Position numbers and translations under genes: made by a program
Virus record (IMG/VR): IMGVR_UViG_3300006045_000004
Location: 1 to 26,179 of that record
Strand: one strand, 5' to 3'
DNA length: 26,179 nt
From: a virus
The notes under the pieces: generated by a model
What the model was told of the DNA's origin: nothing
What the model saw: the letters and a program-made list of their open reading frames with translations, nothing else
The model's database searches: none
In this document: positions 255 to 14,790 of the stretch, piece by piece
Layout: each line of letters begins with the position of its first letter
Numbering within the stretch: position 1 is the first letter of the stretch

Positions 255-2222
255 CTAAACTTCCTCCTCAAAATTTAAAACATTACTTGGTAACACAGTA
301 GCTTCTGGAATATTCCATAAACGAGCATAAAATACTTTTTTCTGTAACAACTTATCTCCAATATCATTATCAGTTAAAGAACCAATTTTAACATTATTAC
401 TATCATAAAAATCTATAAACGAAGCATTAACACCACTATTATTAACAATACTTAATGGATATTGAGTGTCAAATTCAGTAATATCAATTAACACACTTTC
501 ATATCTTTTTTCTGGCATTGTATAGAAAGCTCTTCCTTGAACAACATAAACTACACCTTGTACATCAGCAGAACCACCTGAATGAGTAATATTAAATACT
601 ATTTGTGATGAATTATTAGTTTGTTTTATATTGTTAATGTTAGTACATTGTTTATCACGGAAAACATAATTTCTTTGTTGTATATCGCCTGTATTCCATT
701 GTGTATCCCATGAAGATAAACTTGAATCTGTACTTGATAATGTATATCCAATAAAGCTTGTGTTATTTTTTGTTTGTAAAGGTGTACTTGCAGAACTTCT
801 AATAAATACAGGATTAAAATTAAATTGTTTAACATTTCCATTCGCATTTATACCCATATTATAACCAAAATCAAAACCAAGATTATCAAAACTTCCAGAA
901 TCTTTATAATACCTAACACTACAATATGGTGAAATAGCTTGATTAACAATATTACCAATAGTACCTATTTGTCCTCCAGTAGCACAACTAAGCAAATACA
1001 TATTTATTGGTGCACCATACCATTCTGAACTAAGTAAAGTTCCAGAAGAACAATTTGCAGTAGCAAAATATCCCTTAGCTATACTTAAATCAACAAACCC
1101 ATTTCCTGCGTTTGGATGTTTATATCCAGTATCATATAAATATGAAGGATAATATTTCGTATTAGTTCCTTTATTAAACATTATGCTTTTAATATAAAAT
1201 GGTGTTCCTCCAAGTGCTGTATTTGCATTTACTTGGAAATACATATAAGGATTTGTTGTATCCATATTAACTGATACACTTATTCTTTGCCAATCACCAG
1301 TACCTGTAAATCCAACAGCATTAGAACCACTACTTGCAGTTCTACTTGCAGCTAATGGCACAACTCCTAAACTTCCTATTTTTCCACTTGGATATTTTAT
1401 ATCCATTGATAATGTGTAAACTCCATTTTCACTACTATTAGCAACATATTTCATGCAGGGTGGTTGAGCCCATCCTGTATCTGCATCTCGCTTAGTACGA
1501 GATTGGTTATCATAATTCCATAAATAAAGATTTTCAACAGCTGCATTTTGTGATTGTGTTAATTGGTAACATTTGTCTCCATTGTGAGTTGTTACACTCA
1601 TATAGCTTGTTGCTGGTTGCCATGTTGTTCCACTATGCCTGAACATATTATCACTTACAGCTAATTTAACATCATTTCCATACATTTCGCTTAATAAGTT
1701 TTCTGGTGTTTCAGAAAATTCTGAATTCAATACTGATAAGCTTTTAGGTTGATAAGATTCTCCCTCATCTTTATAAGTTACTTTAAAATCATTTTCTTGT
1801 AATGTGTAATAATCATCTAATATAAAATCACAATCTTGAATATTTAAGTTTTCAAAATTTATTGTATTTAAACTAATTGTTTGAAGTGGTGTACTAAGAG
1901 ACATAATCAAATTCATCCAACTTGATAAATCATTCATTATATCTTGTTTTTGAACACCTAAACTTGGTTCAAATCCATCATCATATTCAAATCTAAACAA
2001 ATACCAATTATTATTTCGTGATACAGCAAAATATTTATAATCACAAAAAGCAAAAATTCCTTCACTATTATTAGAACTTGTTATAGAGACTATTTTTTCT
2101 CCAACAACATTTTGTGACAAAGTTTCTGTTATTAAATTTGTTGCTACTTTAAATTTTACCTTAGCCATTATATCTAATGATTTAGTTACATTTTTTTGTT
2201 CAAACATTATTATTTTGCTCAT
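255..2222 (-). CDS. Putative tail adhesin / receptor-binding protein (~655 aa) with a CBM-like jelly-roll segment
   Basis: Start more likely ATG 2222 (MSKII; ATGA overlap with upstream stop) than 2240; central 'YTLSMDIK...GDWQRISVSV...FYIKSIMFNKG...YYPS' resembles carbohydrate-binding-like modules of phage tail proteins; beta-rich S/T/N/G composition. Confidence 0.6.
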   Translation of the reverse strand: MSKIIMFEQKNVTKSLDIMAKVKFKVATNLITETLSQNVVGEKIVSITSSNNSEGIFAFCDYKYFAVSRNNNWYLFRFEYDDGFEPSLGVQKQDIMNDLSSWMNLIMSLSTPLQTISLNTINFENLNIQDCDFILDDYYTLQENDFKVTYKDEGESYQPKSLSVLNSEFSETPENLLSEMYGNDVKLAVSDNMFRHSGTTWQPATSYMSVTTHNGDKCYQLTQSQNAAVENLYLWNYDNQSRTKRDADTGWAQPPCMKYVANSSENGVYTLSMDIKYPSGKIGSLGVVPLAASRTASSGSNAVGFTGTGDWQRISVSVNMDTTNPYMYFQVNANTALGGTPFYIKSIMFNKGTNTKYYPSYLYDTGYKHPNAGNGFVDLSIAKGYFATANCSSGTLLSSEWYGAPINMYLLSCATGGQIGTIGNIVNQAISPYCSVRYYKDSGSFDNLGFDFGYNMGINANGNVKQFNFNPVFIRSSASTPLQTKNNTSFIGYTLSSTDSSLSSWDTQWNTGDIQQRNYVFRDKQCTNINNIKQTNNSSQIVFNITHSGGSADVQGVVYVVQGRAFYTMPEKRYESVLIDITEFDTQYPLSIVNNSGVNASFIDFYDSNNVKIGSLTDNDIGDKLLQKKVFYARLWNIPEATVLPSNVLNFEEEV

Positions 2223-3580
2223 TCTACCACCACAGTCCAATTAGATAAAGTTGAATATCTATTTTTAAAATTATTACCTATTTGTAAGCTTGATGCATAA
2301 ATTTTCAAATCTGATGTATTAGGACTTGAGTAAAATGGAGTATTGTTTGGTGTATAAATTGATTTTCCAGACCAATCAACATTTCCAATTATAATCTTTT
2401 CTAAAACTTGACCACCATTCATAAAATTATAATTATCACCAGTAGCATTAACAAGTCCACTTAAATTAATAGTTTTTAAATCATAACAAGCTTCTAAACA
2501 TCTTGTACCAATATCAGTTACATTAACAAATCCACTAAAATCTATTTCTTCTACACCATAAAAATGTCTGCACATATAATAAAGAGTTGTTGTAGCACTA
2601 TAATTATTTCCAAATTTAATTTTTTTTATAGTATTTAAAGGTATTGGGTTATTATTTATGATAACATCTTGTGCATTTTGATTATTAACTTGAAAATTTG
2701 TTACTGGTGTTGTATTTGGTTCTATCTCTATCTTTGTTCCATCAAATAATTGTATATAAGAATCATAATTTTCTATTGTTATATAAAAATTATTTTCATT
2801 AAAAAGTTTGTTAAATATATTAATTTCAGCTAAATTACCTATAATTGAATTATCTTCTTCTTTTTTAAATAATATATCACCATTATCATTACCTGTATAT
2901 TTTTTAATATTAATTGGATATGTTGTTATATTTGAATTAAAATTACTCATATTATATATTTTTCCTAATTCAATATCCATTTCAACATCTTCAAGAACAT
3001 TATATATTATTGGTTCAACATCTGATGGTATTTCTTCTAAATTAATTATATCTTCGTTATTATATTCATCTTCTTTTATCCAATAGTCATCTGGGTCTTG
3101 TTGTTTGATAGTCATGTTTTCTGGTTTTCTTGGAGATATTACTTCTCCACCAGGGGTTATTTCTTTTTGAAGAAATTCTATTTTTAAATTTCCATCAACA
3201 ATAGTAACTTGATATTCTGGAGTTTTTTCAATAACAGCTTCATTCATATCAGCTTTAAATAAGAAAACACTATTATCATTAGGATATGTGTATGATTTTG
3301 GAAGAATATGTAATATTATTTGTGTTGATGTTGTAAAAAATGGTAATTTAATATAATAATAATCATAATAAAGATTATGAGGTAATAATGTTTTCTTTTC
3401 ATCATCAAGTGTAAATCTTATATTTGAATATGTTTGATTTAATTCTTCATCTATGTTTTCTGTTATGTCTGATTTTTTTATTTTTATTGTTATTTTTCCA
3501 GAACCTGTTTGTGGGTTTGGATTATTTAGTGTTAATGTGTATTCTTTGTGTAGACATTGAAGTAATTCATTTATATCCAT
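2219..3580 (-). CDS. DUF2341-like N-terminus plus C-terminal BspA-type leucine-rich repeats; putative adhesin
   Basis: N-term 'YSNIRFTLDDEKKTLLPH...YYIKLP'; C-term LRR-like 'VEEIDFSGFVNVTDIGTRCLEACYDLKTINLSGLVNAT...FMNGGQVLEKIII'. Confidence 0.65.
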   Translation of the reverse strand: MDINELLQCLHKEYTLTLNNPNPQTGSGKITIKIKKSDITENIDEELNQTYSNIRFTLDDEKKTLLPHNLYYDYYYIKLPFFTTSTQIILHILPKSYTYPNDNSVFLFKADMNEAVIEKTPEYQVTIVDGNLKIEFLQKEITPGGEVISPRKPENMTIKQQDPDDYWIKEDEYNNEDIINLEEIPSDVEPIIYNVLEDVEMDIELGKIYNMSNFNSNITTYPINIKKYTGNDNGDILFKKEEDNSIIGNLAEINIFNKLFNENNFYITIENYDSYIQLFDGTKIEIEPNTTPVTNFQVNNQNAQDVIINNNPIPLNTIKKIKFGNNYSATTTLYYMCRHFYGVEEIDFSGFVNVTDIGTRCLEACYDLKTINLSGLVNATGDNYNFMNGGQVLEKIIIGNVDWSGKSIYTPNNTPFYSSPNTSDLKIYASSLQIGNNFKNRYSTLSNWTVVVE

Positions 3581-9202: not shown

Positions 9203-9640
9203 CTATAATCCCTTCCTTATGAATAATTTAAGATAAAAAACTCTTAAAAGAATTATAATTGTTCCCAATATTCCAAAACTAATTCTAAATATAATCCCAC
9301 CTTCAATAGTGAAAAATAATAACATAATAGTTTGAATTATAGTAACTGATAAAAATACTAAAAATATTGAAACTGTGAAATTAAACTCACTTATTCTTTT
9401 TTTTGCCGCTATTAAATATATATTAGCTATTGCAAGTAATGGAATTAAACTATTTAATACAAGATAAAAACCATCCCATTTAGGAATTGTTTCTAATGTA
9501 ATGTTTTGAAATCCTAACGATACTAATGAAAAAACTACAAATATTATAGAATAAAATATCATATATTCATAATCTGTTATTTCTATAAATTTTTCAATCT
9601 CAGCAAGAGTACATGGTATTGTAAAATCTTGGTTTGACAT
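9203..9640 (-). CDS. Four-TM membrane protein, holin candidate (paralogue A)
   Basis: Four hydrophobic segments and a basic C-terminus; shares LG(F/Y)Q...P..D and TIEGGIIFR with the neighbour. Confidence 0.65.
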   Translation of the reverse strand: MSNQDFTIPCTLAEIEKFIEITDYEYMIFYSIIFVVFSLVSLGFQNITLETIPKWDGFYLVLNSLIPLLAIANIYLIAAKKRISEFNFTVSIFLVFLSVTIIQTIMLLFFTIEGGIIFRISFGILGTIIILLRVFYLKLFIRKGL

Positions 9641-9642
9641 AA

Positions 9643-10071
9643 TTATAATCCTTCCTTTATATCGATGTTTAAGAATTTTGTTCTGAAGAAAAGCATTACT
9701 GTGATAAATATATTAAAACTCATTCTAAATATTATTCCACCTTCAATTGTGTTAAATAATAAAACATATCCTTCTATGATAGTCCACATTGCGAAAAATA
9801 TTGCTAAAAAATTTGCATAAAAGTATGCTAAGCTTCTTTTTCTTAGTAGTATTAGTATTATTGCTACGAATGATACGACTGCTATTATTATGTTTGATAT
9901 TATGTAACTGATGTCGAATTGTGGAACTGTAGTTAATATTACATCTTGGTATCCTAATGATAGTAATATTGCATCTACGAGAATTATTATGTATAGAATT
10001 AAGTATAATCTATCTACAAGATTTACATATTCTCCTAAGCTTTCTATTCTTTGTTCAATTTCTTCAAACAT
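9643..10071 (-). CDS. Four-TM membrane protein, holin candidate (paralogue B)
   Basis: Four hydrophobic segments; paralogous to 9203-9640; AAAGGA upstream. Confidence 0.65.
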   Translation of the reverse strand: MFEEIEQRIESLGEYVNLVDRLYLILYIIILVDAILLSLGYQDVILTTVPQFDISYIISNIIIAVVSFVAIILILLRKRSLAYFYANFLAIFFAMWTIIEGYVLLFNTIEGGIIFRMSFNIFITVMLFFRTKFLNIDIKEGL

Positions 10072-11676: not shown

Positions 11677-12303
11677 ATGTTTATTTCGTTAAATCAAAGT
11701 ATAATGAATAAAGCACATCCGATAGGTACAGTTTACCAAAATGTAGCTGACAACACAAACCCATACACCTTGTTTGGTGTAGGAACTTGGCAAAGAGTTA
11801 CTGGTAAATACTTACGAGCAATGACCGACCCAGAAGGTTCTGGTGCAACAGCACTAAATCCTAAAATGGGAGGAACAAACAGCATAAACATTGATTGGCA
11901 ACATAATCACGGAAACACTAATAATATTAGTGGGGCTCCAAATACAAATTATACAAGTACGCCAAAGAATAGTGGAGCAGATTATCCGAATGTATCAACA
12001 ATTGGAAACCACGCTCATTCTGTTCGTCTTGGTTGGGCAATTCCATCAAGTGGGTATCGTATTAGAACAACAACTGCTCTTGAATTAGGAGCTGTAAGTG
12101 GTAGTTATACTGGTTCAACTGTTGTAGTTGATAATCCACTATCCAATGTATCTGGTGATAGTGGTTCACATACTCACTCTATGCCACACGACCATTTAAT
12201 GACACATTACCATACTACAAATAATGCTGGAACTCAAACAAGTTCAGTTAAAACGATTGAACCTGAATGGGTTGGTACATATTCGTGGATAAGAGTTTTA
12301 TAA
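11677..12303 (+). CDS. Alternative (antisense, probably silent) fibre-tip cassette 1; T4 gp10/gp12 C-terminal-like domain with HxH motifs
   Basis: Begins SLNQSIMNK, identical to residues 127-135 of 12298-13320; HPIGTVY...NPYTLFGVGTWQ...HNH...HAH...HTH...HDH...HYH...WIRVL; no N-terminal domain and no obvious RBS. Confidence 0.85.
   Translation: MFISLNQSIMNKAHPIGTVYQNVADNTNPYTLFGVGTWQRVTGKYLRAMTDPEGSGATALNPKMGGTNSINIDWQHNHGNTNNISGAPNTNYTSTPKNSGADYPNVSTIGNHAHSVRLGWAIPSSGYRIRTTTALELGAVSGSYTGSTVVVDNPLSNVSGDSGSHTHSMPHDHLMTHYHTTNNAGTQTSSVKTIEPEWVGTYSWIRVL
11685..11712 (+). repeat. Outer crossover site of segment 1: TTCGTTAAATCAAAGTATAATGAATAAA
   Basis: Exact reverse complement of 12916-12943; core TTCGTTAAA-TCAAAG-TATAATGAA. 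Confidence 0.95.
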
Positions 12304-13320
12304 TACTCGTATCCACATTGAAGTAAGGATATGGTCTGGATTTATACTATCTGGATTAGCACTACCTGCATTATTTGTTGCGTGAATATGGGTCATTAAA
12401 TGGTCATGAGATAATGTATGTGTATGTGCCGTTCCAGGCATATTTCTACTATTAGCATAAGTATCATTTGCTGGAACAGTATCATTAATAACAAGTTTAT
12501 TACGATTATTGGTTGAAGAACTAATATTTGTTATATCTGTATTAACTCCTCCAGTTCCTAATAAAACAACTCCTGCTAATCTTGAACCAGCTTCATTAGT
12601 AAAGAACAATCTATCTGGGTGTTTATGTGATGACTCAGCACTTGTAGTTTGTGCAGAAGCACCTGAGTTCATTGCATTACTTGTGTAAGAACCGTTTGGT
12701 GCTGATGTTATATTATTAGTGTTACCGTGATTATGTTCTGGTAAGTTATTTAAACCAAGTTTTCCAGTATATTTAACTGTACCATCTAATGTATCGCCGA
12801 ATTTCATTCCTCTTGGATATGCTCCTTCGATTTTCTGCCAAGTACCCACTCCAAAGAGTGTGTAAGGGTCAGTATCATTTAAAGCATTCATATATACATA
12901 TCCAACTGGGTGACTTTTATTCATTATACTTTGATTTAACGAATCATATAGTTCTCCTTCTCCATTTTTTAAATCTTCTAACATTTGATAAATATCTATA
13001 AGGTCTAATTCTTCATTATTTATTTCTATCTTGTTTGCTTTATCAGATACATCTACATTTCCATGTAAATTTCCTAATAAAGTCCAACCATCAAATTTAT
13101 GATAAAGATTACCGTTTCCACTATTTATATATACATCACCATCTACTCCTATTTGTTCTGATGGTGGGTCATCTCCTCCAACGAAAAGACTCCAAGGTGT
13201 TTCTATACTACAATTTGTATATATGTCTCCGTTTTCATCGAATATTAAATCTGAACATACGGATTTGTGCTTTATGCACAGTTTTTCCCATTCGTTTGTT
13301 TCTGGATTTTTAAATTTCAT
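12298..13320 (-). CDS. Tail fibre 1 (340 aa): constant N-terminus (~126 aa) plus switchable tip
   Basis: 'GGDDPPSEQIGVDGDVYINSGNGNLYHKFDGWTLLGNL' fibre module, then HPVGYVY...DPYTLFGVGTWQ...HxH motifs...MWIRVL. Confidence 0.9.
   Translation of the reverse strand: MKFKNPETNEWEKLCIKHKSVCSDLIFDENGDIYTNCSIETPWSLFVGGDDPPSEQIGVDGDVYINSGNGNLYHKFDGWTLLGNLHGNVDVSDKANKIEINNEELDLIDIYQMLEDLKNGEGELYDSLNQSIMNKSHPVGYVYMNALNDTDPYTLFGVGTWQKIEGAYPRGMKFGDTLDGTVKYTGKLGLNNLPEHNHGNTNNITSAPNGSYTSNAMNSGASAQTTSAESSHKHPDRLFFTNEAGSRLAGVVLLGTGGVNTDITNISSSTNNRNKLVINDTVPANDTYANSRNMPGTAHTHTLSHDHLMTHIHATNNAGSANPDSINPDHILTSMWIRVL
12916..12943 (-). repeat. Inner (intragenic) crossover site of segment 1
   Basis: TTTATTCATTATACTTTGATTTAACGAA is the reverse complement of 11685-11712. 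Confidence 0.95.
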
Positions 13321-13358
13321 AATAATCTTTAATTTTTTAATAATGTTTTGTAGTATTC

Positions 13359-13391
13359 TACTAATTTTTCAAAAATTAGTATTTAAATACT
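13359..13391. promoter_or_regulatory. Overlapping palindromes containing an archaeal TATA-like element; possible promoter/operator or recombination accessory site
   Basis: TACTAATTTTT-C-AAAAATTAGTA (13359-13381) and AGTATTTAAATACT (13378-13391), which reads TTTAAATA on both strands. Confidence 0.45.
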
Positions 13392-13404
13392 TATTTTTCT
13401 TCGT

Positions 13405-13433
13405 TATATAATAATATAATGAACAATGAACAT
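13405..13433 (+). repeat. Outer crossover site of segment 2: TATATAATAATATAATGAACAATGAACAT
   Basis: Exact reverse complement of 14365-14393; core at 13400-13423 is TTCGTTATA-TAATAA-TATAATGAA. Confidence 0.95.
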
Positions 13434-13874
13434 GATATAGGTTCTATCTATTTCACTTTTAATGTAAGTGATAATCCTAATAATAAATATCCTGGAACAT
13501 GGATATTATTAGACTCAAATACATATCTTATAAGTGCAGGTAATGGAATTAATGCCAAACAAAGTATAGGAAATAATCAAAGAAGTATAGATATTGATTG
13601 GTTACATACTCACGCTCAAAACGCACATAAACATAGTTTATATGTTAAAGCACCACCAGCACCAGCAGGTGGAATAACAGTTCCAGCTTCTGTTCATGTA
13701 AACAATACATTTCCAGTAGATTGGAATACATCACAAATAACTAATCAAAATGTGATGAATAGTATGAATGATATAACTGCTACAAATCAAAATTCTGGAA
13801 CTATGAGTAAAACACAAACTTTTGATAATCGTCCTAATAGTACAGCAATTTATATGTGGGAACGAGTTAGCTAA
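13419..13874 (+). CDS. Alternative (antisense) fibre-tip cassette 2
   Basis: MNNEH identical to 13867-14790 at the repeat; GSIYFT...DNPNNKYPGTW...YLISAG...IDIDWLHTH...DNRP...YMWERVS. Confidence 0.85.
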   Translation: MNNEHDIGSIYFTFNVSDNPNNKYPGTWILLDSNTYLISAGNGINAKQSIGNNQRSIDIDWLHTHAQNAHKHSLYVKAPPAPAGGITVPASVHVNNTFPVDWNTSQITNQNVMNSMNDITATNQNSGTMSKTQTFDNRPNSTAIYMWERVS

Positions 13875-14790
13875 CTCTTCTCCACATGTAGAAAGCTATA
13901 CTTTTTGGTCTGTTGTCTTTAGTTGTTGATTGCGTTCCTTTGTTTACTATTGACATTGTTGTTGTTGGATTACCAGTATTACCAGTATAGCTTGTTACTT
14001 GTGATTGTAATCTTCCAGATTGAACATTTCTAATTCCCCAATTACTTGGTACAACATTTCCAAACCAATACCAATCATCTGTATTATCTACATCAGTACC
14101 AGCAGTTCCTGGTATTGTAGCTCCCACAGTTTCCTTATTTGAATGTCTATGGATATTTGTGTGTAAATGATTAGCATTATTTAAATCGTGATTATGTAAC
14201 CAATCAATATCAATTGTATTAGAACCAATAGTATTATTACCACCTGTAATAGTTGAACCAGCACTAACCAAGTATTGATTCTCATCTATAAGAGTCCAAG
14301 TACCTGGATATTTGTTGTTTGGGTTATCTGTGTTTAATATTGTAATATATAAACTACCCACAGAATGTTCATTGTTCATTATATTATTATATACAGAAGT
14401 ATATAAATCTCCTTCTCCATTTTTTAAATCTGTTAATTCTCCTTGCATTTGACTTAATGCTTGTAATAATAATGTATCATCATAAAACCCACCTTGTTCT
14501 TCTTGCTGACAATTTTCTTCTGGGTCTATCCATAAATCATATCCTTCTGGTGGTTCTTCATTACCTATCCAGATTTTATCTTGTCCACTTCCACCTCCAC
14601 TAAAACTATTAGCATCATAGAGTTTTGGTGTTCCTGAGTTATCTGTTCCATATAATTTATTATTTTGTGTTGTTTTATTGACTTTGTTATCTAATTCTGT
14701 TTGTACTAATTGGAGAGCTCCAGCTATCATTTTATTACAATAATCTTTGGCATCTTGCCATATTTTACCGAATTCGTCTCCAATTGCCAT
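13867..14790 (-). CDS. Tail fibre 2 (~307 aa): constant N-terminus plus switchable tip
   Basis: Start at ATG 14790 (MAIGDEF) preferred to TTG 14799; 'KIWIGNEEPPEGYDLWIDP'; tip GSLYIT...DNPNNKYPGTW...HNH..HLH..HRH...DNRP...YMWRRVS. Confidence 0.9.
   Translation of the reverse strand: MAIGDEFGKIWQDAKDYCNKMIAGALQLVQTELDNKVNKTTQNNKLYGTDNSGTPKLYDANSFSGGGSGQDKIWIGNEEPPEGYDLWIDPEENCQQEEQGGFYDDTLLLQALSQMQGELTDLKNGEGDLYTSVYNNIMNNEHSVGSLYITILNTDNPNNKYPGTWTLIDENQYLVSAGSTITGGNNTIGSNTIDIDWLHNHDLNNANHLHTNIHRHSNKETVGATIPGTAGTDVDNTDDWYWFGNVVPSNWGIRNVQSGRLQSQVTSYTGNTGNPTTTMSIVNKGTQSTTKDNRPKSIAFYMWRRVS
14365..14393 (-). repeat. Inner (intragenic) crossover site of segment 2
   Basis: ATGTTCATTGTTCATTATATTATTATATA is the reverse complement of 13405-13433. 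Confidence 0.95.

Follow-up and report, generated by a model that had tools for sequence, protein, structure and literature searches.

Inverted pairs of host dif-like sites at two candidate tail-protein switches in a putative Methanobacteriales myovirus

Introduction

Four crossover-type sites, here called S1a, S1b, S2a and S2b, lie in and beside two tail genes of the virus record IMGVR_UViG_3300006045_000004; the window, that is the whole stretch of 26,179 nucleotides analysed here, is the tail region of this 135,897-bp record. Among the described inversion systems, Mu Gin, P1 Cin and e14 Pin are serine invertases with a 2-bp crossover, and the R64 shufflon has in Rci a dedicated, linked enzyme and sites that all recombine with one another. 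Each of these systems joins a constant N-terminus to alternative C-termini on an invertible segment through an in-frame crossover site, a layout that recurs at the present locus. In Cre/loxP, spacer identity decides which sites pair, and heterospecific lox sites have been engineered. The viral sites resemble loxP in arm sequence and spacing, but searches of the viral genome revealed no Cre-like gene.

The invertible tail-fibre module of the haloarchaeal virus phiCh1 uses a tyrosine recombinase of the virus itself, as related in papers that cite the original work (PMC8651126, PMC8371274). As summarized there, phiCh1 is an archaeal myovirus in which inversion exchanges the C-terminal part of a tail protein through a tyrosine recombinase, as is proposed for the virus studied here. 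It differs in that its invertase is phiCh1-encoded, whereas none was found in the present virus, which has host dif-type sites and two separate two-site switches. Archaeal dif is a single-copy, intergenic site of dimer resolution (PMC2958812, PMC8371274) with TAA-N(6-8)-TTA as a feature (PMC11840125), and XerA of P. abyssi recombines dif without partner proteins in vitro (PMC2958812). Likeness to this system extends to an 11-6-11 near-palindrome, a single recombinase that is partner-free in vitro and a terminus-linked copy; the viral sites differ in forming inverted pairs, with one site per pair inside coding sequence. Xer sites in opposite orientation give rise to inversion.

IMEX phages and the xrs/pdif modules of Acinetobacter plasmids exploit host Xer without a recombinase of their own, and in Acinetobacter no recombination takes place between Xer sites whose central regions are unlike (PMC5357621; 10.1101/2024.04.09.588662). 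Use of host Xer by a mobile element, and the failure of unlike central regions to recombine, would thus be shared with the present virus. However, those elements integrate, co-integrate or exchange modules, and the spacers flanking them are usually unlike, whereas this virus combines matched spacers in inverted pairs with in-frame domain swaps and an archaeal host. In place of the single attP-like site and integration at host dif of an IMEX, its sites are in inverted pairs; nor does it resemble an Rci-type shufflon, since the two pairs have different spacers and searches gave no linked recombinase. A literature search that had most subscription journals outside its range uncovered neither this combination nor a description of dif-like sites in multiple copies in Methanobacteriales.

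Results

The locus is a real feature, which by its layout would operate like the tail inversion of phiCh1 or Gin but with no detected counterpart of the virus-encoded invertase that defines those systems. An earlier note on this DNA had described four sites with a shared core, and all four were found where it had placed them (Table 1). The site geometry is 9-6-9 (arm-spacer-arm) throughout, and no other exact match to the note's pattern occurs in the 135,897-bp genome, which was the scan that the note had proposed. With up to two mismatches allowed, the pattern gives eight strand-matches, all of them in these four sites, against 0.36 expected from shuffles. S1a and S1b form a perfect 28-bp inverted repeat, while identity across the arms of S2a and S2b is imperfect. 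The spacers reproduce the earlier description, being the same within each pair (TCAAAG in pair 1, TAATAA in pair 2) and different at three of six positions between pairs. One point had to be corrected: the outermost sites, S1a and S2b, had been given as direct and are inverted. The direct pairs are instead S1a/S2a, whose recombination would remove gene 1 within a deletion of 1,715 bp, and S1b/S2b, where 1,455 bp would be lost.

Table 1. Positions in the window of the crossover sites, tail genes, cassettes and adjoining palindrome
Feature	Position	Strand	Description
Site S1a	11685..11708	+	Left arm non-coding, equal to host arm consensus; spacer TCAAAG at 11694-11699
Antisense cassette A	11709..12303	+	Intact Gp10_C-type C-terminal domain, 42-46% identity to the expressed one; presumed silent
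Tail gene 1, 340 amino acids	12298..13320	-	Constant N-terminal part plus Gp10_C cassette B, junction at S1b
Site S1b	12920..12943	-	Inside tail gene 1; contains rare Ser codon TCG
AT-rich double palindrome, 53 bp	13346..13398	.	Abuts S2a
Site S2a	13400..13423	+	Left arm non-coding; spacer TAATAA at 13409-13414
Antisense cassette C, 151 amino acids	13419..13874	+	42% identity to cassette D; presumed silent
Tail gene 2, 307 amino acids	13867..14790	-	Constant N-terminal part plus Gp10_C-like cassette D (under Pfam cut-off), junction at S2b
Site S2b	14375..14398	-	Inside tail gene 2; left arm 2 changes from host consensus; spacer at 14384-14389

Both pairs are inverted, and in each, one site lies in a minus-strand tail gene at the start of Gp10_C, while the other heads an antisense paralogous cassette. 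This is the arrangement of invertible tail-fibre systems, with inverted sites at a domain junction and alternative C-termini in frame. When the segments were flipped in silico, the reading frame was kept, gene 1 changing from 340 to 331 amino acids and gene 2 from 307 to 288. Both antisense cassettes are intact open reading frames (ORFs) with conserved Gp10_C end motifs, 42-46% identical to their partners. The swapped domain matches Gp10_C and, in the PDB, 2fkk (E 7e-4); its structure model is of low confidence (pLDDT 63), with T4 gp10 as the best match (E 3e-3). Because T4 gp10 is a baseplate protein, receptor binding by the swapped domain is something we only infer; the likeness to the T4 gp10 C-terminus makes a role in host binding plausible. 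Separately, an early-region ORF (G000:C1:45331-46059) starts with a Gp10_C-like YPVGSI motif and has no adjoining site.

In S1a and S2a the left arm lies outside coding sequence and yet matches the host consensus perfectly, and S1b uses the codon TCG, which accounts for only 18 of 1,585 Ser codons genome-wide. For these reasons the crossover site is evidently selected as DNA. The possibility that it is a by-product of Gp10_C coding was rejected, as Gp10_C genes without a cassette have no site and a match as close as S1b has a probability of 0.002, given the junction peptide and codon usage. The spacers tell the same story in a distant relative (L053; baseplate J 48% identical) with the same switch layout. 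Its spacer, TACAAG, is a third one and is identical in both of its sites, in line with the earlier proposal that spacers covary within pairs; its distal arm is degenerate and its cassette frameshifted, at a coverage of 1x. Just beyond the sites, identity within pairs is 48-60%, so that the 6/6 spacer identity in three pairs (L053 included) has a rough chance of 1e-5. Spacers of different pairs among these three agree at three or four of six positions.

In a nearer relative (68%) and in a host provirus, the Gp10_C genes come without a site and without an inverted cassette. Scans of IMG/VR and JGI data with the tail gene or baseplate J yielded no relatives, and pattern scans of IMG/VR gave nearly all single matches and no inverted same-spacer pair. 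A pattern match in L024 was discarded as a switch site, being away from a Gp10_C junction and apparently due to chance. As a separate observation, spacer 1 (window 11694-11699) equals the host spacer TCAAGG at five of six positions; this is one of the TCADGG spacers, some of which are found in copies close to the terminus in certain genomes, and the likeness may be chance. Also beside the sites, a double palindrome similar to that abutting S2a abuts the non-coding site of L053 (L053:2203-2260) and is intergenic in four host genomes (L265, L267, L305, L307), two of which were checked and have it without an adjoining Xer-type site. It may be a regulator or accessory site. A promoter scan gave a result below chance.

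The viral arms closely copy a motif of the host family. Exact copies of this motif, TTCGTTAWA-N6-TWTAAYGAA, are present in 153 of 314 Methanobacteriaceae genomes at 1-8 per genome, with a single match for the reversed-motif control, and the flanks extend the motif to 11-6-11, i.e. dif geometry. Relative to this motif, the inner 9-bp arms of the four viral sites have 1, 1, 1 and 3 differences in total, the outer 2 bp being less conserved; three sites are within one mismatch of the host arms, whereas simulation gives an expectation of 0.025 such sites per genome. The GTTAA/TTAAC of the host motif is in the same register as in the Sulfolobales dif candidates (PMC2958812 Fig. S7), the dif of T. 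kodakarensis being less similar. The TAA-N(6-8)-TTA core is present in host sites with TTAAA/TTTAA arms and on one side only in viral pair 1.

Both the motif and an orthologue of XerA (archaeal XerA model, cut-off 220 bits) were found in 145 of the 314 genomes, the motif alone in 8, XerA alone in 57 and neither in 104, counts that are not phylogenetically independent and include many incomplete genomes. In the termite methanogen Ca. Methanorudis spinitermitis, two exact motif copies accompany one detected tyrosine recombinase, which passes the XerA model at 350 bits and has XerA of P. abyssi and T. acidophilum as its closest PDB entries. Four of six complete chromosomes have a copy at a distance of 9-14 kb from the position opposite cdc6 (combined p 0.005, with some of the genomes related and one scored with a 1-mismatch pattern), and no copy in the complete chromosomes is within 116 kb of cdc6. 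One complete chromosome (1,767,403 bp) has copies at 172 and 183 degrees; for Methanosphaera stadtmanae, published work predicted dif at ~180 degrees. Many host copies are situated where two genes converge, and one spacer is found again beside different genes, which fits poorly with an operator role. Given the dif geometry, the co-occurrence with XerA, the terminus-linked copies and a context unlike that of operators, host XerA is the likely binder of the motif. The viral sites are dif-like and not dif itself: instead of a single intergenic dimer-resolution copy there are four, arranged as inverted pairs, and two of the four are inside genes.

Several further observations concern these host sites. 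Five complete Methanobacteriaceae chromosomes (G022, G029, G041, G046, G295) contain 6-8 distinct dispersed dif-like sites each, all with different spacers (loci L120-L149), and twin sites in G022, considered as an integrated element, proved to be an assembly end overlap. Motif and XerA are both absent from most of a block of ~107 genomes and from the Methanovirga metagenome-assembled genomes (MAGs). At L250 (G006:C210), one gene is flanked by three dif-like sites that lie within 2 kb and differ in their spacers, resembling a pdif module. Three methanogen-virus-like genomes each have one exact host-type site (L224:4105, L225:11953, L227:11528), which might serve to resolve dimers or to integrate in the manner of an IMEX.

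The search for a viral recombinase of the tyrosine, serine or IS110 type was negative. Searches of the closed genome with PF00589, phrog_1, PF00239, PF07508 and PF01548 gave nothing, while control genomes responded, and a catalytic-motif scan was likewise negative. An unfiltered six-frame search with a hidden Markov model (HMM) of 40 tyrosine recombinases found nothing real; its best match (55885-56142, E 0.011) is apparently a zinc finger of the SWIM type. None of the genes adjoining the switches is a recombinase candidate, and a dedicated invertase of the phiCh1, Gin or Cin type was not found in the viral genome. The earlier note had set a serine invertase against its own interpretation, and with none found the serine-invertase reading is rejected; its tyrosine-recombinase-like core is supported, and one enzyme could serve both segments.

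The ends of the 135,897-bp genome overlap by 158 bp, so that it probably is complete and closes on itself; the CheckV completeness figure is 85%. The genome encodes a sheath, a baseplate J protein and an endolysin that binds pseudomurein, and the top phage match is Methanobacterium virus PhiF1, which together indicate a myovirus of Methanobacteriales. It appears lytic, and most of its early-region ORFs lack annotation. Viral sequence is contained in termite-gut metagenome runs, and this DNA may itself derive from two of these. A CRISPR host search with 40 kb of the virus against 42 genomes gave zero array matches, a 26-bp Methanovirga match being a chance match inside a coding gene, and no close provirus was found among the 314 host-family genomes.

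Elsewhere in the window (9203-10071), a tandem pair of paralogous membrane-protein genes with 71% DNA identity over 102 bp lies upstream of the endolysin and is probably holin-like. Assembly L045 has zero differences from this genome between ~4290 and 23320 and diverges from ~3065 downward (window 2219-3580); this divergence evidently alters the C-terminus of a 453-amino-acid tail protein and is a second variable tip, of a non-inversion type. In the nearer relative (L336-L340, L052), a Gp10_C tail gene varies by replacement without inversion sites, the alleles being one gene for 453 amino acids versus three different genes plus an orphan 3' remnant.

Discussion

The absence of a recognisable viral recombinase and the near-copies of a host site suggest that the virus borrows XerA. 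Since the viral arms copy the host dif-type motif, host XerA is the likely enzyme, and we regard it as rather probable that it acts in trans as the invertase, with the spacer mismatch insulating two switches. XerA would bind the dif-like arms and exchange strands across the 6-bp spacer, upon which a segment of ~1.2 kb or ~1.0 kb would invert and an alternative cassette would be fused in frame. The result would be two independent phase-variation switches, each exchanging, in one tail protein, the C-terminal domain that resembles T4 gp10, and independent flips would yield four tail-tip combinations. Because strand exchange requires matching spacers, the mismatch at three of six positions would block cross-pair reactions, whose products would be loss of gene 1, a 1.5-kb deletion or a flip of the constant part of gene 1. 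Identity within pairs is required by this mechanism, and the difference between pairs may be selected insulation or drift. XerA binding, actual inversion, insulation and an effect on host range are what we infer from these features. The broader proposal, that a lytic-looking virus bases combinatorial tail-tip variation wholly on a host dimer resolvase, with pair-specific spacers as orthogonal sites copying the dispersed multi-spacer XerA sites of the host, is tentative and falls a little short of an even call.

Several observations weigh against the borrowing of XerA, besides the dependence among the co-occurrence counts. Flipped-state joints were absent from the contigs of three runs, and the other assemblies have the orientation of the record and no flipped state; this check covered contigs only, at ~15x depth, including the two runs that may be the source. 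One-orientation contigs do not prove the absence of flipping because contigs drop minority forms. A contig break at 13482-13487 in one run was dismissed as a trace of inversion, as it is away from any site and has no joint. On the host side, termite Methanovirga MAGs carry neither XerA orthologue nor motif, and M. acididurans has XerA but not the motif, with no good site found in its terminus region. A classic dif is single, whereas the host copies are many and dispersed (each complete chromosome examined has 4-9 of them, and their spacers vary). As for the right arm, in five of six viral arms the sole departure from the common host arm is T for C, and the sixth, in L053, has this and a second change; the T variant occurs at ~11 of ~378 host sites. 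The constant T encodes Met, and it is speculation that it lowers the switching rate.

Some of these points would fit XerA-type sites whose switches are now locked or near-silent, through weak arms or a host without a matching XerA, leaving the antisense cassettes as recent relics. The single orientation in all assemblies, the rare right-arm variant, the two changes in the left arm of S2b and the decayed distal site and cassette of L053 (though at 1x coverage) are as expected from such a state. This is nevertheless unlikely, as both antisense cassettes are intact and keep their Gp10_C end motifs at 42-46% identity, the non-coding left arms of S1a and S2a are perfect, and contigs lose minority forms. 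Another tyrosine recombinase could act in trans, such as the Xer-like Methanovirga enzyme or an integrase that a host element or a second infecting virus supplies, the motif match then reflecting a related specificity. Hosts do have extra tyrosine recombinases, the Methanovirga enzyme is just below the XerA cut-off (203 vs 220 bits), and the consistent T could suit a different enzyme; but the left arms agree exactly with those of the host motif, it is the XerA orthologue and not other integrases that the motif follows, and in Ca. Methanorudis the motif occurs with a sole detected tyrosine recombinase, which makes this improbable.

That the host motif binds a non-recombinase protein (a regulator or chromosome-organising factor) lost along with XerA, and that the viral repeats serve 28-bp homologous recombination or are operators, we consider very improbable. 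The dispersed copies with varied spacers and the one-sided TAA-N(6-8)-TTA would agree with it. In comparison, the convergent-gene positions, the same spacer in different gene contexts and the copies near the terminus do not, and the viral sites are exactly at domain junctions with pair-specific spacers, the arms of pair 2 being imperfectly identical. More improbable still, by a shade, is an invertase of the virus itself that is too divergent for detection: known tail-inversion systems encode their enzyme and much of the early region is unannotated, with CheckV at 85%, but the genome closes on itself, the six-frame HMM and catalytic-motif scans were negative and no candidate is beside the switches.

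If host XerA does serve as the invertase, Xer hijacking would be used in an archaeal virus for tail-protein switching and not for integration or dimer resolution, of which we found no earlier report. It would account for phase variation without an invertase gene, and searches keyed to a recombinase would miss such switches. It would also provide a candidate XerA recognition sequence for Methanobacteriales, and point to several copies of such sites, with different spacers, on the chromosomes of this order; a large block of genomes seems to have lost both these sites and XerA. Further, it would suggest methanogen-native orthogonal recombination sites.

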